This document shows, in pieces, positions 1 to 22,700 of a DNA stretch of 64,000 nucleotides. Below the pieces are notes generated by a model. That model did not search any database and was not told where the DNA came from. It was given only the letters and a program-made list of their open reading frames with translations. The DNA is from Wenyingzhuangia sp. 2_MG-2023 (GTDB lineage: Bacteria; Bacteroidota; Bacteroidia; Flavobacteriales; Flavobacteriaceae). Position 1 is the first letter of the stretch. Each line of letters opens with the position of its first letter. The position numbers and the translations under genes were made by a program. The DNA lies in the NCBI RefSeq assembly GCF_030548295.1, contig NZ_JAUOSB010000002.1:1-64000 (forward strand), written 5' to 3'.

Positions 1-385
1 CAACCACGCTCGAACACCGTGTAGATATTATATAACTTCGTATTGTAGGGTCTTCGAGCGAAGTCGAGAAGCAAAGTCTCAAAGGAGAATGATAATACAA
101 AGAAACATTAAAGGTTCTCGACTCTACTTCGACTGCGCTCTGCAACCAAACTAGAACACCGTGTAGGTACTATATAATTTCGTATTATAGGGTCTTCGAG
201 CGAAGTCGAGAAGCAAAGTCTCAAAGGAAAATGACAATACTAAGAAGCATTAGAGGTTCTCGACTCTACTTCGACTGCGCTCTGCAACCACGCTCGAACA
301 CCATGTAGGTTTTAAATAACTTCGTATTGCAGGGTCTTCGAGCGCAGTCGAGAAGCGAAGTCGAGAAGCAAAGTGTTAAAAGAAA
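1..385. repeat. 142-bp tandem repeat, about 2.7 copies (units start near 1, 143, 285); the third copy is degenerate with an internal duplication of GAAGTCGAGAAGC
   Basis: Direct alignment of caaccacgctcgaacaccgtgtag...ggtcttcgagcgaagtcgagaagcaaagtctcaaagga...ggttctcgactctacttcgactgcgctctg across three copies. Internal complementary segments (gaagtcgag / ctcgac...cttcgac) predict stem-loops. Confidence 0.85.
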
Positions 386-386
386 A

Positions 387-2423
<2,037 letters not shown>

Positions 2424-7724: not shown

Positions 7725-8423
7725 ATGAACATATTCAAAAGATTATTTAACGTAGGAAAAGCAGAAGCACATTCTGCAATTGACATGATGGAAGATCCCA
7801 TCAAAATGACCGAACAAGGAATTAGAGACATGAAAGGTGATTTGACCAAAGCGCTAGAAGGTTTGGCACAAGTAAAAGCCATGTTGATTCGTTCTAAAAA
7901 CGACAAGACAGAATTTGAGGCAAAAGCAAAAGACTACCAAAGCAAAGCCATGTTGATTTTGCAAAAAGTGCAAAAAGGAGAGTTGGCAGCTGAGGATGGA
8001 GATCGTTTGGCCAAAGAAGCATTGGTTCGTAAAGAAGAAAATCAAGCCCATGTAAGTCGTGCTACCGCAGAAATTGAAAAATTCTCTCAATCTGTATCGC
8101 AATTAGAAAGCAATGTAAACAAATTAAAGAGCAACATTGGCAAATGGGAAAACGAATTGAAAACCTTAAAAGCCAGAGTAAAAGTTTCTAATGCTACCAA
8201 AAACTTAAACAAACAAATGGCTGCCATTGACAGTTCTAGTACGGTAAACATGTTAGAAAAAATGAAAGAAAAAGTAGCTCAAGAAGAAGCTTTGGCAGAT
8301 GCGTACGGTGATATTGCCAACGAGTCTAGAAGCATTGACGAAGAAATAGACAAAGTTTTAGACAGCACACAAGCAAGTGCTGATAATGACCTTGATGCTT
8401 TGAAAAAACAGATGGGTTTATAA
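7725..8423 (+). CDS. pspA: PspA/IM30 family protein (phage shock protein A homolog)
   Basis: 232 aa, all-helical coiled coil. N-terminus MNIFKRLFNVGKAEAHSAIDMMEDP matches the PspA/Vipp1 amphipathic helix and core. Confidence 0.85.
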   Translation: MNIFKRLFNVGKAEAHSAIDMMEDPIKMTEQGIRDMKGDLTKALEGLAQVKAMLIRSKNDKTEFEAKAKDYQSKAMLILQKVQKGELAAEDGDRLAKEALVRKEENQAHVSRATAEIEKFSQSVSQLESNVNKLKSNIGKWENELKTLKARVKVSNATKNLNKQMAAIDSSSTVNMLEKMKEKVAQEEALADAYGDIANESRSIDEEIDKVLDSTQASADNDLDALKKQMGL

Positions 8424-8434
8424 AAAACCTCCCC

Positions 8435-8470
8435 ACTCAGAGTTTGATAAATTTCAGACTCTGAGTTTTT
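8435..8470 (+). terminator. Rho-independent terminator after pspA
   Basis: Stem actcagagt ... actctgagt followed by TTTTT. Confidence 0.7.
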
Positions 8471-8490
8471 AAAAAAATTGCAAAAGAAAA

Positions 8491-9189
8491 ATGACACTTT
8501 ACGAACTAGTTTTTTCTCCCATAAACACTCCTTTGACGATTTTCTTAATCGCTCTTACCGTTTATAGAATTATCACCACAATTATAGGACTAGATTTTGA
8601 CTTTGATGTAGACATAGATCTAGATATTGATGTAGACATGGATGCTTCTACAGATAGTACCGCTGTAGATTTGGAAGAAATTTCTAATGTAGAACTGAAA
8701 AACGAAACCGTTGTTAGCAACCGAAGAAAGTCTTTAAAATGGTGGCAAGTCTTGCTGATCTATTTCAACTTTACAGAATTGCCCTTTATGTTTACACTAA
8801 CTTCTTGGGTATTTTTCTGGTGGTTCATCACCGTATTGGGAACGTACATTACGTTTAGCCATCACAACGCATTTGGATTCGTCATTTTTGCAGCTGCTAT
8901 CATTCCCTCCTTAATTTTAAACAAAATTTTCACCACTCCTTTCAAAAGTGTATTTAAAAAACTAGAAAGAAAAGGAGTTGATGCCCTTGACCTTTTAGGA
9001 AGAAAAGGAATTTTAGATTCCAATATTTCTGGAGACAGAATGGGTCGCGTAAAAGTAAAGATTGACGATGATCCTATTCTTATCTACGGAAAATCTTTAA
9101 ACGGTGAAGCTTTAAAATCAGGAACAGAAATATTGATTATCAAAGAAGATACAAGCAAAAAATTTTACTACATAAAAAACAACTATTAA
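8491..9189 (+). CDS. NfeD/YqiJ-like membrane protein (flotillin partner)
   Basis: 232 aa. TM helices, an acidic DFDFDVDIDLDIDVDMD repeat, and a C-terminal beta (OB-like) domain. Directly upstream of the flotillin gene, as in E. coli yqiJK. Confidence 0.6.
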   Translation: MTLYELVFSPINTPLTIFLIALTVYRIITTIIGLDFDFDVDIDLDIDVDMDASTDSTAVDLEEISNVELKNETVVSNRRKSLKWWQVLLIYFNFTELPFMFTLTSWVFFWWFITVLGTYITFSHHNAFGFVIFAAAIIPSLILNKIFTTPFKSVFKKLERKGVDALDLLGRKGILDSNISGDRMGRVKVKIDDDPILIYGKSLNGEALKSGTEILIIKEDTSKKFYYIKNNY

Positions 9190-9201
9190 CAAAAAATTAC
9201 T

Positions 9202-11298
9202 ATGAATTTAAGTATCATATCACTAGCATTCTCAGACATTGCGTCTTCTATGGTAGGAATCGCCGTTGGAGGTTTGGCAGGATTAATTTTACTTTTTGTG
9301 CTATTTATAGCCATGTTTTACAAAAAAATACCGCAAGGTGAAGCTATTGTAAAAACAGGGTTTGGAGGCACACAAGTTGCCTTTGACAAAGGAATGTACG
9401 TAATACCTGTTCTACACAAAGTAGAAATTATGGACATTTCTGTAAAAAAAATCAAGGTAGAGCGTATGCTAGAAGATGGTTTGATTTGTAAAGACAATTT
9501 AAGAGCAGACATAAAAGTGGCCTTTTTTGTAAGAGTAAACAAATCCAAAGATGCTATAATAGAAGTTGCACAAACCATTGGTTGTGAAAGAGCTTCTAAC
9601 GAAGAAACTTTGTACGAATTGTTTGAAGCTAAGTTCTCAGAAGCTTTAAAAACAGTAGGTAAAAAGTTCAATTTCATCGATTTGTACGAAGCTCGTAGAG
9701 AGTTTAGAGATGAAATCATCAACATTATTGCTACAGATTTAAACGGATACACACTAGAAGATTGTGCGATTGATTATTTAGAACAAACGCCCATCAAATA
9801 CCTAAAACCAGACAATATTCTAGATTCTGAGGGAATCAAAAAGATTACAGAATTGACGGCAGCACAAAACATCAAAGCCAATTTGATTAGACGTGATGAA
9901 GAAAAAGTGATTCGAAAACAAGATGTAGAAGCCAGAGAAGCCATTCTAGAATTGGACAAACAATTGGCAGAAAAAGAAGAGCAACAAGGTCGTGAAATTG
10001 CCAATATCAAAGCTAGAGAAGCAGCAGAAATAGCAAAAGTATCTCAAGAAGAACGTTTAAAATCTGAATCTGCTAGAATTATTACGGATGAGAAAGTAAA
10101 AATTGCAGAAGAAAATAAAGACCGCCAAATTATAGTAGCCGCTAAAAACAAAGAACGTACAGAAGCTGTAGAAACAGAACGTGTACAAAAAGATAGAGAT
10201 TTAGAAGCTACTGAAAGAATGAAGATTGTTGCCTTGGCAGAAATTGACAAAGAAAAAGCCGTTGAAATAGAACGTAAAAACATTCAAGATGTAATTCGTG
10301 AACGTGTTTCTTTAGAAAAAGGTGTGGTAGAAGAACAAGAAAACACCAAAGATATTGAAGCATTTAAAACGGCAGATCGTGAAAAGAAAGTAGCCATTAC
10401 CTTGGCAGAAAAAGATGCAGAAGCATCCTTAATTACAGTCATCAAAGCTGCCGAAGCACAAAAAGAAGCTTCAAAACAACGAGCAGAAGAAATGAACATT
10501 GATGCACAGGCTAAAAAAGAAGCTTCTACCAAAGAAGCAGAAGCTAGAAAAATTATTGCAGATGCTACTGCCAAAGAAGAAGCAACTATTGGATTGTCTG
10601 AAGCACAAGTATTGCATGCAAAAGCAGATGCTCACGAACGTGAAGGTTTGGTACAAGCTAATATTATAGAAAAAACAGCCTTGGCAGAAGCAGTTGGAAT
10701 TGAAGTACGAGCTGCAGCCATGAAAAAACAAGGGTTGGCAGAAGCAGATATTATTAAAGAAAAAGCACTTGCAGATGCGGCCGGTATTGAAGAGAAAGCA
10801 GAGGCTATGAAAAAACTAGATGGAGTTGGAAAAGAGCACGAAGAATTCAAACTGCGTTTAGACAAAGAATTGCAAGTAGACTTGGCAGAAATCAACATAC
10901 AAAAAGAAATTGCCGATGCACAAGCAGACGTAATTGGAGAAGCTTTGAAAGCTGCTAATATTGATATTGTAGGTGGTGAAACCATGTTCTTTGACCAAAT
11001 AATTGGACAAATTACTCGCTCTAAAGGAATAGACCGCTTGGTAAATCATTCTGCAAACATTACAGAAGTAAAAGATGCCATTTTAGGTTCTAATGACGTA
11101 AAAGGAAATTTGTTAGACAAAGTTAAAAGTTTTGCCACGGATTACGGAATTGGTTCTGAAGACATTAAAAACTTAACCATCTCTAGTTTGTTGTTAAAAC
11201 TACATGGAAAAGCAAGTTCTAACGATGAGAAGAATTTATTCTCTAATCTGACCAATTTGTCCAAAGCATTAGGATTGGGAGATCAGAAGTTGGGTTAA
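9202..11298 (+). CDS. Flotillin / SPFH (band 7) domain protein with a long E/A/K-rich coiled-coil tail
   Basis: 698 aa. N-terminal TM segment, an SPFH domain (EAIVKTGFGG...VIPVLHKVEIMDISV...), then extensive EA-repeat coiled coil as in YqiK/flotillins. Confidence 0.85.
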   Translation: MNLSIISLAFSDIASSMVGIAVGGLAGLILLFVLFIAMFYKKIPQGEAIVKTGFGGTQVAFDKGMYVIPVLHKVEIMDISVKKIKVERMLEDGLICKDNLRADIKVAFFVRVNKSKDAIIEVAQTIGCERASNEETLYELFEAKFSEALKTVGKKFNFIDLYEARREFRDEIINIIATDLNGYTLEDCAIDYLEQTPIKYLKPDNILDSEGIKKITELTAAQNIKANLIRRDEEKVIRKQDVEAREAILELDKQLAEKEEQQGREIANIKAREAAEIAKVSQEERLKSESARIITDEKVKIAEENKDRQIIVAAKNKERTEAVETERVQKDRDLEATERMKIVALAEIDKEKAVEIERKNIQDVIRERVSLEKGVVEEQENTKDIEAFKTADREKKVAITLAEKDAEASLITVIKAAEAQKEASKQRAEEMNIDAQAKKEASTKEAEARKIIADATAKEEATIGLSEAQVLHAKADAHEREGLVQANIIEKTALAEAVGIEVRAAAMKKQGLAEADIIKEKALADAAGIEEKAEAMKKLDGVGKEHEEFKLRLDKELQVDLAEINIQKEIADAQADVIGEALKAANIDIVGGETMFFDQIIGQITRSKGIDRLVNHSANITEVKDAILGSNDVKGNLLDKVKSFATDYGIGSEDIKNLTISSLLLKLHGKASSNDEKNLFSNLTNLSKALGLGDQKLG

Positions 11299-11386
11299 TC
11301 TAACAACTACCCAAGGGGCTTAAGCCCTTTGGGTATCCTGTTGGACAATTCATTAGTTTATTCATTAGTTTTTAACAGATCTAAAG

Positions 11387-11884
11387 ATGCTATATTTAGT
11401 AACATTCACAACTCATAATTCAAGAATTTCCGATAGAATGGTTACTTTTTGCTCTCCAGAATTCATTAAAAATCTAAAGCCTTTTTTATTATTAGACAGC
11501 GATTATCTAAAAATGATTGACTTGGTTGCAGAAGCGATAACAAAATATAAAATAGTTACAATTGCCTTTACAGTAATACCAGATCATGTTCATCTGTTAG
11601 TTGATGTTAAAAATAAGAAAGAATTAAATGAACAAATTCGAAAATTAAAAGGGTTCACCTCCTATCAATTTCAACGATACAAAGAATGGAAAAAAGGAGA
11701 AAATCATGTTTGGTCTCAAAAATTTCACAAAAAAGAGGTCGATTCTGAATTGAACAACATAGCCCGAGTCGTAAATTACATCCATAAAAATACAGAAAAA
11801 CATTACAAAAGATGGGGAAATTTGTTGAATGAATCTAAGCCTCTTCTAAAGAAGCTAAACGAGAAAAACTGTAATCAACTGTAA
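11387..11884 (+). CDS. IS200/IS605-like Y1 (HUH) transposase of the RAYT/TnpA_REP type
   Basis: 165 aa. YLVTFTTHNSR (cf. WFFTVNLRNRR of E. coli RAYT), HUH motif IPDHVHLLV, and a C-terminal WSQKFHKK...VVNYIHKNTEKH with the catalytic Tyr. Confidence 0.8.
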   Translation: MLYLVTFTTHNSRISDRMVTFCSPEFIKNLKPFLLLDSDYLKMIDLVAEAITKYKIVTIAFTVIPDHVHLLVDVKNKKELNEQIRKLKGFTSYQFQRYKEWKKGENHVWSQKFHKKEVDSELNNIARVVNYIHKNTEKHYKRWGNLLNESKPLLKKLNEKNCNQL

Positions 11885-11918
11885 TCAACTGTAATCAACT
11901 GTAATCAACTGTAATCAA
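11869..11918. repeat. 10-bp microsatellite (CTGTAATCAA) x5 overlapping the RAYT stop codon
   Basis: actgtaatca repeated five times in tandem. The RAYT C-terminus (KNCNQL*) is encoded inside it. Confidence 0.9.
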
Positions 11919-12050
11919 TGGGCTTAAGCCCATTGAAATAATTAGCTAGAAAATAACGAAACTACTTCTCCATACACTTTTTTCCGCTACGTTACAAAAA
12001 GCACTCGAAGTGACTCAGGAACTAAATAACAAAACAGGTCTACAATACAA

Positions 12051-15000
12051 ATGAAAAATAACGCTATAGAACTAGAAGGAGGAACGTACGAAATCATTCA
12101 AAATCGTTTGCAAAAGCATAAAAATGATTTGGTGCTGCGTTTACAAACTCTCAACGAAAACAGAAAAGAGGTCTTTGGAGCTGTAGAAACCAAACTGATT
12201 GCCAACGATAGAATCAACACCCAAAATTCATGCATTGCTAGAGATATTGTTTCCTTAGGAAACACCTGTTTGTTAGGGTACAATGTGCATTTTGGACTAC
12301 GATCAGAAATAAAACTGGAAGATGTATTTAGCGTTTACAAATTTCAGAACAATCGCTTTCAATCTCAAGACTTGAGTTTCATCAACCAAGAGGGATTTGT
12401 TTCTGATTTTAAGAACCTTTACAAATATTACCGAAATACCTTTTTCACCAAATTCATGCTTACCGAGCAATACCTACACATGGTGTTTCAGATTGGGGAA
12501 AAAGTTGAAGACATCAAAACATTCAAATGGTTGGTAAAAGACAACCAAATTACCTACATAGACAACCGTAGTGATCACGAATATACGTTTCCAAACCAAC
12601 ACGAATTTAGATGGCAAGAGGTTACTTATGACAACTTTAGAAAAGGAAGTCATCCTCATGTTTCTATTTTAGACAAACTATTTGTAGAAGCTATTGGTGG
12701 TGATTTGACCATAAAAATAGAAGACAATTCTGAAACTGGAAAAGGGATTTATGCAGAACCTGTAGATCACAAAGATCAAACCCTAGAAGATGCAAAATAC
12801 AGATTTGCTGATTTGGGAAATATAACCGTTCTAGAAATTACGCCTTACCAAGAGACGGCTCGTTATTTTGTGTACAATCACAAAGTACAGCAAGTTTCTA
12901 GAATTCAAAGCATACAAGACACCGCTGTATTGTTGCCAGATAGTCAAGGATTGATTTTTCCTGAAGGATATTACTTACAAACAGGAACGTTTAAAAAGTT
13001 TGATCGTGTTGTTCAAAATGTCAAGTTTCAGAAAAAAATAGCTTCTTCCAACGGAGAGGATTATCTCTACGTTTTTTACGAAGAAAAAGAAGGAGATTAT
13101 GTGTTGATGCATTACAACATTATTGAACAAACCATTCACACTCCAATTGTTTGTAATGGGTATACACTTTTGGAAAATGGGGAATTGAGTTATTTCAAAT
13201 CCGAAAGTGAAGCTACCAAACACCATGTGATTCAGATTTGGCAAACTCCTTTTTCTAATAACATACAAGTAAATACAGAAAACAGTGATTCGCTCTTATT
13301 TAAAATAGGAAACAAAGACATTGTAAAAGCAATGGCTGAGTGTCAAGAAATCATCACTTTGTTAAACAAAGAAGACAATTACGATGGTTTGTATGCTGAT
13401 ATTTCCAAACAAAGCACCGATGTTTTGGATGCTTATTTTTGGATTTCAGAACCCGATACTTCTAGCTTAAATGTTCCTTTAGAAGAATTAAAATCTACCG
13501 CCAATGCTGCTATTGGTGAATTTGAAAAAGTAGTACAACTAAAGAAAATTGCGGTTGAAGCTGCCGAAAATTTAGAATCCGAAATTGCTGAACTTTTCAA
13601 CAAAATAAAACACAGTACGTTTACCTCTATTGATGATTTTGTATTGTTATTGACTAATTTAAGAGCTTCACAAGGAAACACCATTGCGCTTAGAGACATC
13701 CGTTACATTAATTTAGAACGTTTGGATGAGGTGAGTGATAGCATTAAAGAACAAACAGAACGTATTTCTAGACGATGTGTTACATTTCTATTGGATGACA
13801 AAGCTTTGATTCCTTATCAAAAAAGGATTCAAGAAAACAATGAAGTTTTAGAAACTTTGACCAAAGTAATTGAAGGGAAAAAACTAGAAAAGAACAGCAA
13901 TCAAATCAGTCACGATTTGGAACTTTTGGTAGATATTGTCAACAATTTGGACATTGAAGACACTTCTCACTCCACTAAAATTATTGACAACATCTCTTTG
14001 TTATTTGCAGAAATTAACCAACTAAAAGCAGGTATCAAAAGAAAAGTTCAAGATCTCAACAACAAAGAAAGTAAAGCCGATTTTGTTGCGCAACTAAAAC
14101 TGTTTGATCAAAGCATCATCAATTTTATAGACATTGCCAACACTCCAGAAAAATGTGACGAATACCTAACCAAACTCTCTGTTCAATTAGAAGAATTGGA
14201 AGGAAAATTTGCCGATTTTGATGAATACATCACCGAAATTATCAGCAAAAGAGAAGAAGTTTACAGTGCCTTTGAAAATAGAAAAACCAGCTTGGTAGCG
14301 GCTCGTAATAAAAAAGGAATTGCGCTACAAAGTGCTGCAGAACGCATTTTAAAAAGCATTCACAAAAAAGCGGCAACGTTTAAAAGTGAAGAAGAAATTC
14401 ACGGTTATTTTGCTTCGGATTTGATGGTGAGCAAATTGCACAACATTGTAACGCAATTGCAAGAACTAGAAGAAACGGGAAAAGCAGAAAGTCTACAAAC
14501 CAATTTAAAAACAACCAAAGAAGAAGTTATTAGAAAACTGAAAGATACTTTGGATTTGTATGAAGATGGTGAAAATGTCATCAAGTTTGGAAACCACCGA
14601 TTTGGAGTTAACAAACAACATTTAGACTTGAATATTGTCAACAAAGATGGTCGGTTGTATTTTCATTTAACGGGTACTGACTTTTACGAACTGATAGAAA
14701 ACAAAATTTTAAACAGTGCTAAAGAAATTTGGGAACAAGAATTGATTTCTGAAAACACCGAAGTTTATAGGTCTGAATATTTGGCTGCTAAAATCTATCA
14801 GAAATATGGTTTGCAAAATTTATCAAACCACACTCCAGAATCTCTGAGTGATTTGGTAAAACAAGAAAGTAACGAAAACTATACGGAAGGTTATGTAAAG
14901 GGAGTGCATGATTTGGATGCATTTGTACTTTTGAAACATTGGATTCAGACTGAAAACGATTTGAAATTACTTAGCTTCCCTCCTAGCATTCGTGCCGAAG

Positions 15001-16868
15001 CTCAATTTTTCTGGCAGGAATTGAACGGTGAAGTTCAAAAAAAATTGAATCAAAAAATAAAAGCTACAGGTGCTATTCTAAATGTATTTCCAAACGCTAC
15101 AGAATACAGCGCTTGTATAGCTGCTATTTTGGAATTGTTACCTCATAAAAATCAACATGTTGCCTATTACTTGTTTCACGAACTAAAACAAAATGATTTG
15201 TTTAGTGTTAGTCAACAAGCTTTGGATTTAAAAACAGACTTTGTTAATTATCTGCAAAGCAACAATGCTTGGCTGTCTTTTGAGCAATCGTTAAACAATT
15301 TCACAGTCCTATCAGACAAAACAGAACTGTGCACACAATGGTTGCAATCTTACTGTAGTAACGAATCAAAACATTCCACCTTTTACATTCAAGAAGCGGT
15401 AGCTTTGTTACTATTCAACAATTCTACCTTGCCTTTGTTTGTAAAAACCAACGTTCCTATCAACAATTTAAAAGGAGATCACGGAACTATTGTAAATGGA
15501 ATTTACACGTTTGAATATTTTAATTTTATTCAAAAATTAAACGATTACAACACGGCCATTGTTGCTAAATTTTTAGCGTTTAGAGAAGCTAAGAAACAAG
15601 TGATTCACCAACAGAAAAACGCTTTAAAACTAAATGAATTCAAACCAAAAGTATTGTCTTCTTTTGTTAGAAATAAATTGATCGATCAGGTCTATTTGCC
15701 TCTGTTTGGAGATAATTTATCCAAACAATTAGGAACGGTTGGAGACAACAAACGTACCGACAGAATGGGAATGTTGTTGTTAATCTCCCCTCCTGGATAT
15801 GGTAAAACTACGTTGATGGAATACATTTCTGAACGATTGGGATTGATCTTTATGAAAATAAACGGACCTGCTATTGGACACGAAATTACTTCTGTAGACC
15901 CTATGGCAGCCACCAACTCAGCCACCAAACAAGAGTTAGAAAAACTGAACTTGGCGTTTGAAATGGGAAACAATGTAATGTTATATTTGGATGATATTCA
16001 ACATTGCAATCCTGAGTTTTTACAGAAATTTATTTCACTGGCCGATGGACAACGTAAAATAGAAGGAGTTTACAAAGGAAACACCAAAACCTACGATTTT
16101 AAAGACAAGAAATTCTGTGTAATTATGGCCGGAAACCCTTATACAGAAAGTGGTGACAAATTTAGAATTCCAGACATGTTGGCCAACAGAGCTGATATTT
16201 ACAACTTGGGAGATGTGATTGGAGAAACTGCTGATTTGTTCAGAATGAGTTTGATTGAAAATGCACTAACCGCTAATGACACTCTTAGACAATTGAGCAG
16301 TAAAAATTTTGACGATTTGTACACTTTGGTAAATCATATAGAACAAAACAGTTCAGAAAGTTTGAACTTGAAAGGAAACCACACCCAACAAGAAATCAAC
16401 GATTATATTTCTGTATTGCAAAAAGTGATTGTTTTGAGAAATACTGTGGTAAAAGTGAACGAGCAATACATAAAATCTGCAGCGATGGAAGATGCTTACA
16501 GAACCGAACCGAGTTTTAAACTACAAGGTTCTTATCGTGATATGGGGAAATTAACAGCCAAAGTAGTACCAATCATGAACGATAAAGAGTTGGATTCTCT
16601 GCTATTAAGTCACTACGAAAGTGAATCACAAACCTTAACCTCAGCAGCCGAAGCCAATTTGTTAAAATACAAAGAAATGACCAAATCTCTGACAGAAGAA
16701 GAAACCGAGCGTTGGGAAAAAATGAAAGAAACCTTTGTAAAAAACAACAAGTTGAAAGGTTTTGGAAATCAGAATGAAATGGCTCAGGTTTTGCAACAAA
16801 TGATGGAGTTCTCTGATAATTTAGAGGGAATTAAAAACGTACTGAAAAATGGATTTGGCAAAAACTAA
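12051..16868 (+). CDS. Giant (1605 aa) cytoplasmic protein with a C-terminal MoxR/AAA_5-type AAA+ ATPase domain; the N-terminal ~1200 aa have no domain I can assign
   Basis: Single uninterrupted 4.8-kb ORF in AT-rich DNA. Walker A ISPPGYGKTTL (near nt 15790), Walker B VMLYLDD, and sensor/arginine region GNPYTESGDKFRIPDMLANRADIY typical of AAA_5/MoxR. The N-terminal third is beta-rich, the middle is long helical/coiled coil, and there is no signal peptide. Confidence 0.6.
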   Translation: MKNNAIELEGGTYEIIQNRLQKHKNDLVLRLQTLNENRKEVFGAVETKLIANDRINTQNSCIARDIVSLGNTCLLGYNVHFGLRSEIKLEDVFSVYKFQNNRFQSQDLSFINQEGFVSDFKNLYKYYRNTFFTKFMLTEQYLHMVFQIGEKVEDIKTFKWLVKDNQITYIDNRSDHEYTFPNQHEFRWQEVTYDNFRKGSHPHVSILDKLFVEAIGGDLTIKIEDNSETGKGIYAEPVDHKDQTLEDAKYRFADLGNITVLEITPYQETARYFVYNHKVQQVSRIQSIQDTAVLLPDSQGLIFPEGYYLQTGTFKKFDRVVQNVKFQKKIASSNGEDYLYVFYEEKEGDYVLMHYNIIEQTIHTPIVCNGYTLLENGELSYFKSESEATKHHVIQIWQTPFSNNIQVNTENSDSLLFKIGNKDIVKAMAECQEIITLLNKEDNYDGLYADISKQSTDVLDAYFWISEPDTSSLNVPLEELKSTANAAIGEFEKVVQLKKIAVEAAENLESEIAELFNKIKHSTFTSIDDFVLLLTNLRASQGNTIALRDIRYINLERLDEVSDSIKEQTERISRRCVTFLLDDKALIPYQKRIQENNEVLETLTKVIEGKKLEKNSNQISHDLELLVDIVNNLDIEDTSHSTKIIDNISLLFAEINQLKAGIKRKVQDLNNKESKADFVAQLKLFDQSIINFIDIANTPEKCDEYLTKLSVQLEELEGKFADFDEYITEIISKREEVYSAFENRKTSLVAARNKKGIALQSAAERILKSIHKKAATFKSEEEIHGYFASDLMVSKLHNIVTQLQELEETGKAESLQTNLKTTKEEVIRKLKDTLDLYEDGENVIKFGNHRFGVNKQHLDLNIVNKDGRLYFHLTGTDFYELIENKILNSAKEIWEQELISENTEVYRSEYLAAKIYQKYGLQNLSNHTPESLSDLVKQESNENYTEGYVKGVHDLDAFVLLKHWIQTENDLKLLSFPPSIRAEAQFFWQELNGEVQKKLNQKIKATGAILNVFPNATEYSACIAAILELLPHKNQHVAYYLFHELKQNDLFSVSQQALDLKTDFVNYLQSNNAWLSFEQSLNNFTVLSDKTELCTQWLQSYCSNESKHSTFYIQEAVALLLFNNSTLPLFVKTNVPINNLKGDHGTIVNGIYTFEYFNFIQKLNDYNTAIVAKFLAFREAKKQVIHQQKNALKLNEFKPKVLSSFVRNKLIDQVYLPLFGDNLSKQLGTVGDNKRTDRMGMLLLISPPGYGKTTLMEYISERLGLIFMKINGPAIGHEITSVDPMAATNSATKQELEKLNLAFEMGNNVMLYLDDIQHCNPEFLQKFISLADGQRKIEGVYKGNTKTYDFKDKKFCVIMAGNPYTESGDKFRIPDMLANRADIYNLGDVIGETADLFRMSLIENALTANDTLRQLSSKNFDDLYTLVNHIEQNSSESLNLKGNHTQQEINDYISVLQKVIVLRNTVVKVNEQYIKSAAMEDAYRTEPSFKLQGSYRDMGKLTAKVVPIMNDKELDSLLLSHYESESQTLTSAAEANLLKYKEMTKSLTEEETERWEKMKETFVKNNKLKGFGNQNEMAQVLQQMMEFSDNLEGIKNVLKNGFGKN

Positions 16869-16883
16869 GAAATAAAAAACACT

Positions 16884-17435
16884 ATGGGAATATTTGACTT
16901 TTTTAAGAAGAAAGAAACCGAAAGACACTTTGATCCTTTGAACATTAAAGTAGCTGATTTGGAAAAAAACTACTTGCTAGATTACCAGTTTGAAACTTGG
17001 ACTGTAGCTGCTATGTTTGAATACGACTGGGGAAATAATTATTTTACCCGAGAGTATACGTTGGTCAACGGCAAAAAAAAGAAATATTTAGAAATAGAAG
17101 ACGATGGAGGTATTATTTTAACAATGTCTGAAGGTCTAAAATTGAGAAAATTAGGAGACGATGTAACCGATCATATAGACCGTAACAACGAGCCGCCTAA
17201 AAAAATTGTTTACGAAGGTGTACTTTACTACTTAGATGAAAAGAGTCCAGGTTACAGCAGAAATGTAGACAATGAAAATTGGGAAGAGTTGATTTCCTTT
17301 GATTATCTTGACGATGAAGAAGAAAAAACCTTGTGCATTACCCAATATGGGGAGCATGAATTTGAAGCTTGTAGAGGAATCATTATTAAAGAAAGAGACA
17401 TTAGCAATATATTGCCCTCACAACAAGATAATTAA
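16884..17435 (+). CDS. DUF4178-like cytoplasmic protein (tentative)
   Basis: 183 aa, acidic, beta-rich (YQFETWTVAAMFEYDWGNNYF...LEIEDDGGIIL). Lies 15 bp after the giant gene. Its size and its position next to DUF350 and a spermidine-synthase-like gene fit DUF4178 neighbourhoods. Confidence 0.35.
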   Translation: MGIFDFFKKKETERHFDPLNIKVADLEKNYLLDYQFETWTVAAMFEYDWGNNYFTREYTLVNGKKKKYLEIEDDGGIILTMSEGLKLRKLGDDVTDHIDRNNEPPKKIVYEGVLYYLDEKSPGYSRNVDNENWEELISFDYLDDEEEKTLCITQYGEHEFEACRGIIIKERDISNILPSQQDN

Positions 17436-17457
17436 TTAAATTTGAAAAAAATCAACT

Positions 17458-18255
17458 ATGAAGTTTTTTAAAACCTTTAGCATTCTGCTCATCACCCTAA
17501 TAGTCGTTTCTTGTGGCTCTGAGAAAAAACCGTACGTAAAATCTCCTTTAGATGTAATTGTAACAACGTACATAGACCAGCAAAATTATAGCGTGATTCT
17601 GGCTGACATGAATTACGAAGAAAGCAACGATTCCTATTTTCACAAATATCGAATTGTAATTCCTAAAACAGCCACTCCTACAGGTTCTGAAAACGATTTT
17701 GAAATCATCAACACCGATTGGAAAAAAGTTTCTCTTCTTGTGTTTGAGCAGCATCAAAACGATTTAGGAATGACGGTACTTTCTAAAAAAAATGGCGTTT
17801 TAGACAAAAAAACAGCTCCTGCAGGTTATGACAATTATGTAGGGAACAAAAAATACGGACAATGGCAAACTAGCTCTAACGGAACATCATTTTGGGCATT
17901 TTACGGTCAATATGCGTTCATGCGTTCTATGTTAGGATGGGGATCTGGATACCGATACTACCGAGATGATTACAATTATTACAACAGCTACAGAGGTCGT
18001 CAAAACTACTATGGTAGAAACAATTCATTTGGAACCAACAACTACAAAAGCAACACTTCTACTTGGGCAAACAAACCACAAAGCTTTAAACAAAAAGTAC
18101 AAAGCAAAGTAAAAAAGAGTGCTGCTACTCTTAAATCAAAATCGTATTCTTCGGGAAGTAGTTATGGAAATAGCTCTCAAAAAACGACCAGAAGTACCAG
18201 TAGATACAGCAACAGTTCGTCTTCTAGATCTCGCAGTGGAGGATTTGGAAAATAA
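17458..18255 (+). CDS. Lipoprotein with a low-complexity Y/N/S/R/G-rich C-terminal tail
   Basis: 265 aa. Lipobox LIVVSCGS. The C-terminal ~130 aa are YRYYRDDYNYYNSYRGRQNYYGRNNSFGTNNY...SSSSRSRSGGFGK. May correspond to YjfM/DUF1190-type lipoproteins (inference). Confidence 0.45.
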   Translation: MKFFKTFSILLITLIVVSCGSEKKPYVKSPLDVIVTTYIDQQNYSVILADMNYEESNDSYFHKYRIVIPKTATPTGSENDFEIINTDWKKVSLLVFEQHQNDLGMTVLSKKNGVLDKKTAPAGYDNYVGNKKYGQWQTSSNGTSFWAFYGQYAFMRSMLGWGSGYRYYRDDYNYYNSYRGRQNYYGRNNSFGTNNYKSNTSTWANKPQSFKQKVQSKVKKSAATLKSKSYSSGSSYGNSSQKTTRSTSRYSNSSSSRSRSGGFGK

Positions 18256-18284
18256 CACAAACAACAACGTTAAAAAACATTGAC

Positions 18285-19154
18285 ATGAACGAATATATTG
18301 ATTTTACCGAATTGTTAAACTCCGGAGGGTACGTACTTACTGGATTGCTGATATTCATCCTTGGAAAAATCCTTTTCAAATTAACGCACTCCAAAATCAA
18401 CATTCAACATGAATTGGTAGAAAAAGACAATTTTGCTTTTATCATTTCTTATGTAGGTTATTTTGTAGGATTGCTCATTACTATTGGAGGTAGTATTGTG
18501 GGAGAAAGTTATGGTTTTTGGATAGACATAGAACATATTTTTATTTATGGAATTCTTTCCATTCTCTTGCTTCAAGTTTCTTCATTTTTAGGAAACAAAC
18601 TCATCTTGCCTAAGTTTGATTTGAAAAAAGAAATTATTGAGGATCAAAATGAAGGTACTGGAATTATTGAAGCCATCATCTACATTGTAAACGGATTGAT
18701 TTTATACGGTGCTTTGTTGGGAGAATCGGAAACGTTAACTGAGGGAATCCTAACTTTTGTGGTGTATTGGGCAATTGGAAATGTAATGTTGATCATCACT
18801 TCTAAAATTTACACTCTTTGGCTGAATTACAACATTCACCAAGAAATAGAAAAAGACAATGTAGCTGCAGGAATTGCATTTTCAGGTGCTATTTTGGCTA
18901 TTGGAATCATTATTATGAATGCGTTGATTGCTCCTTTTATAGATTGGACAACTACTTTGGTTGATGTTTCTGTGCAAATGGTGGTTGCTTCTTTATTGTT
19001 GCCAATCATGCGTTTTTTTGCCGACAACATTCTTTTGCCAGGACAAAAATTAACGGATGAAATTGTGAATCAAGAAAAACCAAATTTAGGTGCAGGATTG
19101 GTAGAGGCTTTTGCTTACGCAGGATCTGCAGTTTTGATTTCTTGGTGCTTTTAA
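18285..19154 (+). CDS. DUF350 (YjfL-like) inner-membrane protein, tandem DUF350 repeats
   Basis: 289 aa, about 8 TM helices. The motif ...NVAAGIAFSGAILAIGIIIMNALIAP... matches E. coli YjfL NTAASLAFSGTLLG...; a second copy is at ...NEGTGIIEAIIYIVNGLILYGALL. Confidence 0.7.
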   Translation: MNEYIDFTELLNSGGYVLTGLLIFILGKILFKLTHSKINIQHELVEKDNFAFIISYVGYFVGLLITIGGSIVGESYGFWIDIEHIFIYGILSILLLQVSSFLGNKLILPKFDLKKEIIEDQNEGTGIIEAIIYIVNGLILYGALLGESETLTEGILTFVVYWAIGNVMLIITSKIYTLWLNYNIHQEIEKDNVAAGIAFSGAILAIGIIIMNALIAPFIDWTTTLVDVSVQMVVASLLLPIMRFFADNILLPGQKLTDEIVNQEKPNLGAGLVEAFAYAGSAVLISWCF

Positions 19155-19316
19155 TTTGATCAATTGTTGATTTATTTGCATCTCTTAAATTATTTAAAAT
19201 ACACAGCACTGTTCTTTACTATTTTACCCCCTATTTTGATACTGACACATAAAGTAGAAAATGGAATAAAGTAACGAGAGAATTCATTATACAAAACAGC
19301 TAAAAGCATTAAAAAA

Positions 19317-20864
19317 TTGAACTTTCTTAAAAAAAATTCATTCGTACTAAAAGCAGCAATTTTTGCTACAGGATTTGCAGGTATTGTAGCAGAGTATATC
19401 TTATCTACACTAGCTACTTATTTTATAGGAAACTCCATTTTTCAATGGACTATGATTGTTTCCTTAATGCTTTTTTGCATGGGATTGGGAAGCCGATTGA
19501 GTAAAATGATTACCAAAAATTTAATTCAGAATTTTCTACTTCTAGAAGCTTCTTTGTCTATTTTAGTCGCTTTCTCATCTGTTTTGGTCTACACATTGGC
19601 CTCTTTTACAGAACTATATACAGCAGTTATTTACTTATTGAGTATGATGATTGGATTGCTAATTGGATTGGAAATTCCACTTGTGGTTAGAATCAATAAG
19701 GAATACGAAGATTTAAAAAGCAACATTTCTTCTATTTTAGAAAAAGACTATTACGGTAGTTTGTTGGGTGGAGTCTTTTTTGCTTTTATTGGTTTGCCCA
19801 TTTTAGGATTGACCTATACTCCTTTTGTGCTGGGAATCATCAACTTTTTAGTAGCTTTGATTGTTTTGTTCCGTTTTAAAGACAAAATAAAAAACGCCCC
19901 ATTTGTAAAAATGCAACTTATTTTAGGAACCGTATTTGTCATTATTATTGGAGGAGTATTTGTAACGCAACCCATCATTCAGTGGGGAGAACAAAAAAAA
20001 TACAAAGACAAAGTAATATTATCTGAACAAACCAAATACCAAAAAATTGTATTGACCGAATGGAAAAATGAAAATTGGCTGTACTTAAACGGAAACTTAC
20101 AATTCTGTTCTATTGATGAAAAAATGTACCACGAACCTTTGGTGCATCCTATCATGAACTTGCATCAACATCCGCAAAAAATCCTAATTTTAGGAGGTGG
20201 TGACGGTTGTGCTGTTCGTGAAATTTTAAAATATCCTTCTGTAGAAAAAATAGATTTGGTGGATTTGGACCCTAAAATGACTGATTTAGGAAAAAACCAT
20301 CCTGTATTGCTAAAAAACAATTTAGGAAGCCTAAACTCCAAAAAAGTGACCATTTACAACCAAGATGCCTACATTTATTTGGAACAAAACAACACGGATT
20401 TTTACGACATTATAATATCCGATTTGCCCGATCCTAGAAACATAGAATTGGGAAGATTGTATTCCCGTGAATTTTACACGCTTTGTTACCGAAAATTAAG
20501 ACCCAATGGTTTGATAATTACCCAAGCCGGAAGTCCTTATTTTGCCACCAAAGCGTACCAATGTATAGACAAAACTATTACCGCCAGTGGTTTTACTACA
20601 GCAAAACTACACAACCAAGTATTGTCTATGGGAGAATGGGGTTGGATTTTAGGAAGCAAACAATCCATAGATAAAAAGATGTTAAAGCAACGTTTGCAGT
20701 CTTTGCATTTTAAAAACACAAACTGGATCAACCATGAAGCAATGTTGCTCATTACTTCTTTTGGAAAAGATTTTTATAAAGTAAAAGACAGCGTTGGAGT
20801 AAACGAAGTACACAATCCTGTTTTGTACAATTATTATTTAAAAGGAAATTGGGATCTTTATTAA
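19317..20864 (+). CDS. Polyamine aminopropyltransferase (spermidine-synthase family) fused to an N-terminal multi-TM domain
   Basis: 515 aa. The C-terminal domain has ILILGGGDGCAVREIL...VDLVDLDP...DIIISDLPDP (SAM/dcSAM-binding Rossmann fold, SpeE-type). The N-terminus has about 7 TM helices. The only in-frame start before the conserved first TM is TTG at 19317, with no upstream ATG, so the start is uncertain. Confidence 0.75.
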   Translation: MNFLKKNSFVLKAAIFATGFAGIVAEYILSTLATYFIGNSIFQWTMIVSLMLFCMGLGSRLSKMITKNLIQNFLLLEASLSILVAFSSVLVYTLASFTELYTAVIYLLSMMIGLLIGLEIPLVVRINKEYEDLKSNISSILEKDYYGSLLGGVFFAFIGLPILGLTYTPFVLGIINFLVALIVLFRFKDKIKNAPFVKMQLILGTVFVIIIGGVFVTQPIIQWGEQKKYKDKVILSEQTKYQKIVLTEWKNENWLYLNGNLQFCSIDEKMYHEPLVHPIMNLHQHPQKILILGGGDGCAVREILKYPSVEKIDLVDLDPKMTDLGKNHPVLLKNNLGSLNSKKVTIYNQDAYIYLEQNNTDFYDIIISDLPDPRNIELGRLYSREFYTLCYRKLRPNGLIITQAGSPYFATKAYQCIDKTITASGFTTAKLHNQVLSMGEWGWILGSKQSIDKKMLKQRLQSLHFKNTNWINHEAMLLITSFGKDFYKVKDSVGVNEVHNPVLYNYYLKGNWDLY

Positions 20865-20866
20865 AA

Positions 20867-21115
20867 ATGGTCATCGAGCGAAGTCGAGATGCAATTAAAA
20901 ACAATGAATTCAACTATTAAAAAGTAGAAATAACATCAATAAAACCATCATTAAAAAATGATCATTGAGCGGAGTCGAGATGCAATTAAAAACAATGAAT
21001 TCAACTTATAAAAAGTAGAAACAACATCAACAAAACCATCATTTAAAATGGTCATCGAGCGGAGTCGAGATGCAATTACAAACAATGAATTCAACTTATA
21101 AAAAAATAGAAGCTA
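20867..21115 (+). repeat. ~90-bp tandem repeat (about 2.7 copies) duplicating the speH RBS/start region; copies 1 and 2 encode stop-truncated 12-codon mini-ORFs
   Basis: Units start at 20867, 20958 and 21048. Each contains ATGCAATTA[A/C]AAACAATGAATTCAACT.. Copies 1-2 read MQLKTMNST[I/Y]KK then TAG. Copy 3 reads through into speH. Confidence 0.85.
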
Positions 21116-21387
21116 GCATTTACAATCACCAATTTTGGACAGATTGTACAGACCCTACTGCCTTAAAAAAAACATACGAAACATTGTTAAAAAAAGCAGG
21201 TTTCACCATTTTACTTTTTAACGAACACCATTTTCCAGAGCAAGGTTATACCTGTTTTTGGTTGTTGGGAGAAAGTCATTTGGCCATACATACTTTTCCA
21301 GAAAGCAATAAAAGTTATGTAGAATTGAGCAGTTGTAACAAAGAAAAACTAGAGGTATTTAAGCTTAAAAACAATAAAATCTCATGA
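21085..21387 (+). CDS. speH: S-adenosylmethionine decarboxylase proenzyme (pyruvoyl-dependent, SpeH-like small form)
   Basis: ESHLAIHTFPE autoprocessing/active-site motif and an N-terminal ..NHQFWTDC (cf. HxxxELWGCD). The alternative upstream ATG at 21070 lies inside the repeat. Confidence 0.75.
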   Translation: MNSTYKKIEASIYNHQFWTDCTDPTALKKTYETLLKKAGFTILLFNEHHFPEQGYTCFWLLGESHLAIHTFPESNKSYVELSSCNKEKLEVFKLKNNKIS

Positions 21388-22154
21388 AAAAAAAAGTAAG
21401 CAATTTCATCAATTACAATCCTTATTTTATTCAATTTATATATACGCTGATTGTACTAAATGTCTGTGCGCTTATTTTAGAATCTTACGACGAACTCCGC
21501 CAACACTATTCTTTTTTCTTTCATGCATTTGAAGTCTTTTCTGTAGCCATCTTTACTTTAGAATATTTTATCCGTATTTGGATTTCGGACAAAACCAAAG
21601 AAGACAAAAGAGAACGCATCAACTTTGCGTTTTCTACCATGGGAATTATAGATTTGATTGCCATTCTGCCTTTTTATTTGCCTTTTATTTTTCCTTTTGA
21701 TTTGAGAGTTCTCCGTATTCTTCGTTTGTTTCGTCTGTTGCGAATTTTCAAATTAGGACGTTATTCCAAATCCTTAAAAACCATTCGATACATTTTTAAA
21801 GAAACCAAAGCAGAATTGTCCATTACCGTATTTGTTACTTTTGTGTTGATGATCCTTTCTTCTACTTTGATGTATTACATAGAGCATGACGATCAACCAG
21901 AACAATTTGGTAGCATAGGAGATGCTTTTTGGTGGTCTGTAGCAACACTTACAACGGTAGGTTATGGAGATGTGTTTCCTGTAACTGCATGGGGAAAATT
22001 GTTGAGCGGAATTATTGCCCTTATCGGAATTGGTTTTGTGGCACTTCCTACAGGAATTATCAGTTCTGCTTTTATAGAAAAAATACAAAACGATAAAAAG
22101 AAACACCCCAATCAAACATGTAACTGTCCGCATTGTGGTAAAAAAATAGAGTAA
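21384..22154 (+). CDS. Voltage-gated-type (6TM) potassium channel
   Basis: 256 aa. S4 with spaced arginines RVLRILRLFRLLRIFKLGR, pore helix and selectivity filter TTVGYGD, and a C-terminal CNCPHC. The start ATG overlaps the speH stop (ATGA). Confidence 0.85.
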   Translation: MKKKVSNFINYNPYFIQFIYTLIVLNVCALILESYDELRQHYSFFFHAFEVFSVAIFTLEYFIRIWISDKTKEDKRERINFAFSTMGIIDLIAILPFYLPFIFPFDLRVLRILRLFRLLRIFKLGRYSKSLKTIRYIFKETKAELSITVFVTFVLMILSSTLMYYIEHDDQPEQFGSIGDAFWWSVATLTTVGYGDVFPVTAWGKLLSGIIALIGIGFVALPTGIISSAFIEKIQNDKKKHPNQTCNCPHCGKKIE

Positions 22155-22157
22155 ACT

Positions 22158-22700
22158 ATGGCACACGCAAAAAACATCTTTTTATTTGTTGGTTTTTTAT
22201 ACTTTGTATACGTTTTAGACCTTGTAATTCCGTTATCTCGCTACGGAATTGTTCCCAGAACGCAACGGGGTTTGATAGGGATTGTTAGTTGTCCTTTTTT
22301 GCATGCCAACCTAAGACACTTGGTTTCTAACACCGTTCCGTTGACTATTTTGTTGTTTGTGCTTTATTCTTTTTACCCTAACAAAGCCATGAGTGTGGTG
22401 GTAATTTCTATTGTTTTGGGCGGAATTTTAGTCTGGCTTTTTGGACGAAATGCCAACCATATTGGTGCCAGCGGATTGATTTACGGATTGGTTGCTTTTT
22501 TAATTGTGAATGGTTTTACCGAGCAAAAATTTGTACCTATACTTATTTCTATTGCTGTAGCCGTAGTTTACGGAAGTCTTTTCTGGGGTATTTTTCCCTC
22601 TTACCGCACCTATGTTTCTTGGGAAGGACATTTGTTTGGAGCTGTAGCTGGTTTTGCAGCTGTGTTTTTGTTAAAAGGACTCAAAAATACAATTGTGTAA
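22158..22700 (+). CDS. Rhomboid family intramembrane serine protease (short form)
   Basis: 180 aa, 6 TM helices. Catalytic GASGLIYGL and a downstream His in WEGHLFGAVAGF. Confidence 0.7.
   Translation: MAHAKNIFLFVGFLYFVYVLDLVIPLSRYGIVPRTQRGLIGIVSCPFLHANLRHLVSNTVPLTILLFVLYSFYPNKAMSVVVISIVLGGILVWLFGRNANHIGASGLIYGLVAFLIVNGFTEQKFVPILISIAVAVVYGSLFWGIFPSYRTYVSWEGHLFGAVAGFAAVFLLKGLKNTIV

Follow-up and report, generated by a model that had tools for sequence, protein, structure and literature searches.

Tandem amplification of an intercistronic REP-type hairpin element together with the speH translation start in Wenyingzhuangia sp. 2_MG-2023

In the 64,000-nucleotide stretch of DNA from Wenyingzhuangia sp. 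2_MG-2023 analyzed here (the window), a gene encoding an AdoMetDC-family protein, speH, is preceded by two short reading frames that repeat its own N-terminus and then stop, and the question is whether these truncated copies do anything for the gene that follows them. A sequence-only reading of the locus had proposed that they form a repeated leader peptide that senses polyamines, or alternatively that they are a slipped duplication that makes expression phase-variable. We found that an intercistronic REP-type element has been amplified in tandem together with the start of speH, and we consider it probable that the array is a largely neutral product of this amplification. The outcome is mainly a correction, in which the "repeated leader peptide" becomes a by-product of a REP-associated segmental duplication, and the mini-ORFs upstream of speH should be neither annotated nor pursued as a polyamine sensor. 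The locus also illustrates how an intercistronic REP, when amplified in tandem, can take a start codon with it and so generate decoy mini-ORFs, at a junction where most relatives couple speE and speH tightly.

Units of the array and the start of speH

Tandem Repeats Finder placed the array at 20860-21104, with a period of 91, 2.7 copies, 91% matches and a score of 418, which bears out the unit of about 90 bp at about 2.7 copies that had been described before. The two upstream copies of the gene start each close with a stop codon, as had also been noticed (Table 1). The stop is made by a 1-nt difference in an A-run, which reads A5G-TAG in the decoy copies and A7-TAG in the gene. In speH, the A7 run (TATAAAAAAATAG) spans codons 6-8 (21096-21102) with the TAG out of frame, and it is exactly here that the decoys, with A5G, differ from the gene. 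This run is common to the related sequences L124, L128, L129 and L001, and other relatives encode YKH at this place.

Table 1. Features of the window around speH, and copies of the hairpin element before speH in the window and in related sequences.
Feature	Position	Strand	Details
142-bp x 2.5 tandem array	1-385	+	REP cores 54-69, 196-211, 338-353, 351-366; cut by window edge
Conserved same-strand gene cluster	7725-22700	+	also in L129 and L130
Y1 (HUH) transposase-like gene (RAYT-like), 165 aa	11387-11884	+	Pfam Y1_Tnp, E=5.7e-14
SpeE-like membrane-anchored polyamine aminopropyltransferase, 515 aa	19317-20864	+	Pfam Spermine_synth, E=3.2e-37; NCBIfam NF002956, 568.7 bits (above cut-off 472)
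Tandem unit 1	20865-20955	+	91 nt: REP hairpin, 14-nt A-rich leader, ATG + 6 codons + stop, ~35-nt tail
REP element 1	20869-20891	+	GGTC-A-TCGAGCGAAGTCGAGA-TG; core 20874-20889
Decoy start 1, MNSTIKK-stop	20904-20927	+	copy of speH start + 6 codons + TAG; in-frame upstream ATG at 20889
Tandem unit 2	20956-21045	+	90 nt; layout as unit 1
REP element 2	20960-20982	+	core 20965-20980, 2 mismatches
Decoy start 2, MNSTYKK-stop	20995-21018	+	12-codon version from 20980
Partial tandem unit 3	21046-21104	+	head only; continues into intact speH
REP element 3	21050-21072	+	core 21055-21070; end 14 nt ahead of real start codon
speH, AdoMetDC-family (SpeH-like), 100 aa	21085-21387	+	start supported by homologues; longest ORF from 21070
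Window (Wenyingzhuangia sp. 2_MG-2023)			3 element copies before speH; 91-nt unit
L128 (gut-metagenome contig)			2 copies before speH; ~71-nt unit; upstream pseudo-start ATG-TAA
L124-126 (three Logan contigs)			1 copy before speH
L129 (Ochrovirga pacifica)			1 copy before speH
L001 (Wenyingzhuangia sp. IMCC45574)			0 copies before speH; doublet between DUF350 and speE instead
L122 (metagenomic contig)			0 copies before speH; 3-nt spacer
L127 (metagenomic contig)			0 copies before speH
L130 (metagenomic contig)			0 copies before speH

Pairwise, the unit heads are 91-95% identical and the two tails 89%, so that units differ by 5-11%. Head and tail have thus diverged alike, indicating uniform drift in which the coding part shows no sign of protection. 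Over the same segment, the window and L128 share about 91% identity (counted by eye from the sequences), and since the divergence between units roughly equals that between these two lineages, the array is not recent. The parts that do not belong to the REP, namely the 14-nt leader, the seven codons and the tail, were copied together with it, which identifies the event as a segmental duplication; the suggestion of a duplication, offered earlier as the alternative, was therefore essentially right.

The unit alignment already refutes two other origins of the array, three independent insertions of a mobile REP and an artefact of assembly, which together we regard as exceedingly improbable. REPs are thought to be mobile and a RAYT-like Y1 transposase gene is present in the window, but independent insertions do not account for a leader, codons and tail that are duplicated along with the REP, and the palindrome on either side of the RAYT-like gene is not this REP. 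As for an artefact, the units are too diverged to be collapsed or expanded reads, and two copies are also found in a related contig from another data set.

A-rich microhomologies that could have served the duplication lie at the speE stop, within the decoy codons and at the unit ends: TATTAAAAA is present at the speE stop and within decoy copy 1 (as ACTATTAAAAAG), and TTATAAAAA is shared by decoy copy 2 and codons 5-7 of speH. The tail of about 35 nt resembles both speH codons 8-17 and the speE stop plus spacer of L127, with p about 0.01-0.1, the best value of about 0.01 being that before correction for multiple tests.

Copy 1 translates over 20889-20927 to MQLKTMNSTIKK and a stop, and copy 2 over 20980-21018 to MQLKTMNSTYKK and a stop, in the 12-codon versions that had been reported. 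Copy 3 continues as a 105-aa ORF at 21070-21387, with a match to Pfam AdoMet_dc (PF02675) at E=1.4e-15 and 58 bits, against a cut-off of 25. In all 17 aligned homologues, however, translation begins at the position of the second ATG (21085, MNSTYKK...), with the consensus M[NKED]xxYK[HK]IEA, and the NCBI protein P0001 (S-adenosylmethionine decarboxylase, Wenyingzhuangia sp. 2_MG-2023) is 100% identical over the corresponding 100 aa. The MQLQT extension lacks conservation, and the ATG that opens it is part of the 3' arm of the hairpin stem. Judged from these alignments, the true start of speH is the second ATG, at 21085, and it follows that the duplicated coding piece has seven codons (MNSTYKK) and that the decoys are most likely MNSTIKK and MNSTYKK, each followed by a stop. 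Both 12-codon frames do exist, but as the homologues and the NCBI protein start at 21085, seven codons rather than 12 is the probable length of the predicted decoy ORFs, if they are translated at all.

The identity of the encoded protein is supported by LLGESHLAIHTFPE, which contains the self-processing Glu-Ser motif and is invariant in 18 sequences except for its Gly (Ala in three of them). The match to the NCBIfam model SAM_DCase_Bsu reaches 46 bits and lies below the cut-off of 75.65; because the protein is short and this equivalog score is under the cut-off, the substrate of the AdoMetDC-like protein is not certain.

Each unit also holds a 17-codon ORF in another frame (MVIERSRDAIKNNEFNY followed by a stop, and variants thereof), at 20867-20920, 20958-21011 and 21048-21101. 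These ORFs begin at the ATG of ATGGTC, that of unit 1 lying 2 nt past the speE stop and that of unit 3 ending 14 nt inside speH. A relay of termination and reinitiation from speE to speH through the MVIERSRDAIKNNEFNY frames was considered and rejected, as L124, L128 and L129 lack the ATG; for the same reason, the 17-codon ORFs are probably fortuitous.

A hairpin element of REP type

The opening of each unit is a small hairpin element, GGTCATCGAGCGAAGTCGAGATGC, which can be written GGTC-A-TCGAGCGRAGTCGAGA-TG. In its core, T-A, C-G, G.A, A.G and G-C pair around a CGRAGT loop. In the three copies at speH, the A-T closing pair is immediately preceded by the tags GGTC, GATC and GGTC, respectively, and two outer pairs are absent. 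The hairpin of unit 2, with its GATC tag, is slightly decayed, and a C>T change in its stem leaves a T.G wobble.

The 16-nt core TCGAGCGRAGTCGAGA was used to scan 185,579 species genomes, and at least 120 loci were recovered. By our own estimate, about 550 chance matches are expected for a 15-base pattern in 596 Gb, so that match counts mean little, and only the flanks, which lie outside the search pattern, were used as evidence. Among the matches listed, which comprise 163 unique instances, Watson-Crick pairing is seen at the three flank positions in 153/163, 143/163 and 113/163, respectively, where 50-60 would be expected, and all four Watson-Crick types occur. The same instances share a 5' (G/T)TC tag, with T at -5 in 127/163, C at -4 in 138/163, and G or T at -6. 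For 140 of the 163 instances, the covariation score was 0.498, compared with 0.122 +/- 0.012 after shuffling (0/500 shuffles reached 0.498) and at most 0.185 in slid controls. With standard ViennaRNA parameters, the hairpins of the window are thermodynamically weak (-1.6 kcal/mol as DNA, z about 0.3; individual hairpins z -1.4 to +1.1). Since standard energy models rate them so, our claim of a hairpin rests on the covariation in the family.

The hosts among the matches listed are sphingomonads, mostly with inverted doublets, Flavobacteriia and other Bacteroidota, Verrucomicrobiota, Streptomyces, and others, and the core keeps its G.A/A.G mismatches and its tag across Bacteroidota, sphingomonads, Verrucomicrobiota and Streptomyces. 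It is associated with no known transposase, and we found no Rfam family or paper that describes it: scans of the window and of 10 element-bearing loci at the gathering threshold, and a permissive scan of 20700-21300, gave nothing meaningful, and full-text searches of the literature for the core, for related sequences, or for REPs in Flavobacteriaceae yielded no relevant paper. A scan of metagenomes for the pattern of REP plus leader gave 0 matches.

In architecture and placement, the speH element resembles the superfamily of CGTC/TGTC-tagged REPs described by Di Nocera, De Gregorio and Rocco (2013, PMC3733652), to which neisserial dRS3 and rickettsial RPE-4/6 belong. According to that paper, these REPs occur in several phyla, sphingomonads among them, in many dispersed copies per genome and with no dedicated transposase. 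Their tag may also be TGTC or CCTC, their stem has 8-9 bp and their loop 4-5 nt, and a 3-nt unpaired tail, mostly CCA, follows. They lie mostly between ORFs of the same direction (or convergent ones), near the upstream stop, with occasional clusters and intragenic copies. The element studied here shares the unpaired tag, (C/T/G)GTC, adjoining a short hairpin, although GGTC is not among the variants listed in the paper, and it shares the spread over several phyla, the clusters and intragenic copies, and the lack of a dedicated transposase. Its placement is likewise similar, with the first element 4 nt past the speE stop and the 142-bp array (see below) adjoining the 3' end of ligA. The outer stem co-varies strongly. 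Unlike the REPs described there, the speH core has invariant G.A/A.G mismatches and a 6-nt loop; no CCA consensus is present at +4 to +6, where the window has GCAA; and the copies in the window are a shortened GGTC form, in a class, the Flavobacteriia, that does not figure among the hosts in the paper. The speH copies stand head-to-tail and not as inverted dimers, which follows from the duplication of the whole segment.

Comparable arrangements are known from other REP families. In the REP/BIME elements of E. coli, for example at malE-malF, palindromic units are also repeated in an intercistronic spacer, and as proposed for those, the speH array could stabilize the upstream mRNA or uncouple the expression of neighboring cistrons. 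BIMEs alternate the orientation of their REPs and hold no copies of the downstream start codon, in contrast to the speH array, and their sequence family (GTAG type) is unrelated. REPIN-RAYT systems share the short hairpin repeats, and a RAYT-like Y1 gene is located 9 kb upstream in the same window, but the speH copies are not inverted doublets and the palindrome that flanks the RAYT-like gene is a different one (GGGCTTAAGCCC). Readings of the array as CRISPR-like or as iterons were rejected, since the "spacers" between the hairpins are themselves repeated.

The element occurs at a second locus of the window, the 142-bp array at its left edge, which adjoins the 3' end of ligA (NAD-dependent DNA ligase, 387-2384, minus strand). 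Each 142-bp unit contains one REP core and a degenerate inverted partner (TTCTCGACT...GCGCTC), and the array ends with a 13-bp x 2.6 sub-repeat, AGCGAAGTCGAGA. Exact copies of the 15-mer CGAGCGAAGTCGAGA are found at 55, 197 and 20875, and copies that carry 1-2 mismatches at 339, 352, 20966 and 21056. With at most 2 mismatches, this amounts to 7 matches at 2 loci in the 64-kb window, against 0.02 expected, and no shuffle reached 7. The link between the two arrays is thus real, confirming the kinship of the speH units with the 142-bp repeats that had been noticed from the sequence.

Clusters of the REP were also seen elsewhere, namely a 24-nt tandem array with four copies (L081:412-499), a cluster of 7 (L079:3123-3558) and three copies with a period of about 126 nt (L073:527-797), so that tandem arrays of the element recur in other genomes. 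In a Fluviicola MAG (L021:7090-7150), a long terminator-like hairpin (AAAAAGCCGTTTTTGG...CCAAAACGGCTTTTTT) carries the element in its loop. Cores within long ORFs of other Flavobacteriia, of 603, 411, 1226 and 1236 codons (L003:567, L029:3344, L038:3726 and L055:3786, respectively), are possible intragenic REPs like those reported by Di Nocera et al. (PMC3733652).

The speE-speH spacer in relatives

Copy-number variation in relatives, which had been proposed as a check, was found between lineages, with 0, 1 or 2 copies of the element before speH where the window has 3 (Table 1). One copy of the element stands at the same position, 13-14 nt 5' of the speH start, in three related lineages, and the element is absent from four others; in each of the four carriers (the window, L128, L124-126 and L129), 13-14 nt separate the end of the core from the ATG. 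In ten more distant relatives from JGI metagenomes, speE and speH are separated by 3-10 nt without the element, and on the strength of these spacers tight coupling of the two genes looks ancestral. In a neighbor-joining tree, weak at about 165 residues, carriers and non-carriers are intermixed and the two-copy L128 pairs with the one-copy L124. Weak as it is, this tree suggests a single old insertion, with several losses and two amplifications that took place separately. In L001, the REP occurs as an inverted doublet (1214/1249, within 1214-1264) in the DUF350-speE spacer of the same polyamine operon and is missing from the speE-speH spacer; REP-family elements have accordingly landed in the polyamine operon at least twice.

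These comparisons bear directly on the proposal that the repeated mini-ORFs are leader peptides that sense polyamines by ribosome arrest or attenuation, in the manner of speFL or of the uORF of eukaryotic AdoMetDC (MAGDIS), which we judge very unlikely. In its favor, two short ORFs 5' of an AdoMetDC-family gene possess the complete initiation context of speH, a module of hairpin plus leader is kept at 13-14 nt from the ATG in four lineages, and this module was amplified twice. Conservation of the mini-ORFs in relatives had been set beforehand as the point on which it should be judged, and none was found: most relatives have 0-1 hairpin copies and none has more than two, the mini-ORFs are absent from every relative examined, and the two-copy L128 has no more than ATG-TAA upstream. 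A leader-peptide sensor fails on this point. Most of the wider family has the short spacer, and the decoy peptides are not identical (I vs Y). The leader RNA folds no better than its shuffles (z = -0.07), a scan of 20860-21110 detected no terminator-like site and no sigma-70-like promoter, no Rfam family matches, and the tails of the units drift as fast as the coding heads. A Bacteroidetes-type promoter (-7/-33) within the unit was likewise rejected, as the TTTG that it needs does not occur on the plus strand of the array. The known systems share with the locus the presence of short ORFs 5' of a polyamine-pathway gene, but the speFL and MAGDIS peptides are conserved and have a defined arrest mechanism, whereas the speH mini-ORFs are unconserved, truncated copies of the N-terminus of the gene itself, with no terminator/anti-terminator structure.

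The second proposal, that a recent slipped-strand duplication created a phase-variable contingency locus that switches speH expression, is also unlikely. It is in keeping with the tandem structure, the A-rich microhomologies at the unit borders and the range of 0 to 3 copies among related lineages, but neither "recent" nor "phase-variable" held up. The 5-11% divergence of the units matches that of the window from L128, the units are 91 nt long and not short identical repeats, and the gain or loss of a unit leaves the last, intact copy and its frame in place, so that no ON/OFF switch results.

A role under selection deserves separate consideration. In this reading, the modules of hairpin plus start, derived from an old REP insertion that broke the coupling of the two genes, would be selected cis-regulators, tunable by copy number, that act as RNA hairpins between the cistrons and as decoy initiation sites and thereby set the ratio of SpeE to SpeH or the stability of the speE mRNA. 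The amplification in two lineages, apparently independent and at the same junction, and the retention of the element at about 89% identity between genera with 84% identity in SpeE could reflect such selection, and the constant distance to the ATG and the position of the first hairpin, 4 nt past the speE stop, are also consistent with it. It is nonetheless improbable, given that the element is missing from four close relatives and from the wider family, that decay is visible in upstream copies (2 core mismatches each in copy 1 of L128 and copy 2 of the window), that the hairpins are predicted to be weak, and that concerted evolution can keep REPs similar without function. Should it be true, a selfish or neutral repeat would have been recruited as a translational rheostat for polyamine synthesis.

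The history that we favor is that of a largely neutral amplification. The REP would have been inserted once in the ancestor of the Wenyingzhuangia/Ochrovirga group, separating two otherwise nearly abutting cistrons, speE and speH, and would then have been lost several times. In the window, and apparently independently in L128, tandem duplication copied the element along with the leader and the start codon and left truncated pseudo-starts behind; slipped-strand or unequal recombination at A-rich microhomologies would have been the mechanism, and the mini-ORFs would be by-products with no sensing role. If the array acts at all, it may do so in the ways proposed for REPs in operons. Translational coupling between speE and speH would be broken, hairpins would stand just past the speE stop, and the decoy initiation sites could lower the output of SpeH, each extra unit adding one more hairpin and one more decoy that shares the initiation context of the real start. 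Liang, Rudd and Deutscher reportedly found in 2015 that E. coli REPs within 15 nt of a stop codon reduce expression of the upstream gene.

Gene neighborhood and the RAYT-like gene

The SpeE-like protein encoded upstream of the array is 100% identical to an NCBI protein of Wenyingzhuangia sp. 2_MG-2023, and the TAA stop of its gene, at 20862-20864, lies 4 nt ahead of the first hairpin element. The genes speE and speH are part of a conserved same-strand cluster (Table 1) that encodes PspA, a Band_7 protein, a DUF3686 ATPase, DUF4178, a 265-aa protein without a Pfam match, DUF350, SpeE, the AdoMetDC-like protein, a K+ channel and a rhomboid protease.

The RAYT-like gene sits inside the PspA...SpeE part of this cluster. 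Its best NCBIfam model is "REP-associated tyrosine transposase" (NF047646), with 56.6 bits and thus below the cut-off of 80, while IS200 scores 38.5 bits; the protein contains the motifs HVH and YIHKN. Near-identical palindromes, CAAGGGGCTTAAGCCCTTTG and CAATGGGCTTAAGCCCATTG, flank the gene at 11308-11335 and 11915-11936 and are found nowhere else in the window. A tblastn search with the RAYT-like protein in 1.1 Mb of REP-carrying loci revealed no Y1 gene beside a REP and gave one weak Y1-like match, in L074 (E=2e-4), about 7 kb from its REP. A link between the RAYT-like gene and the speH REP was rejected, as the gene is flanked by CAAKGGGCTTAAGCCCWTTG and not by the TCGAGCGRAGTCGAGA element, and as no Y1 gene stands beside the REP in those 1.1 Mb of loci.

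Another tandem repeat, perfect and made of five 10-bp copies (AACTGTAATC), was observed at 11867-11916 and nowhere else in the window. The Y1 transposase-like ORF has its final codons and its stop region in this repeat, which continues into the downstream palindrome of the gene.
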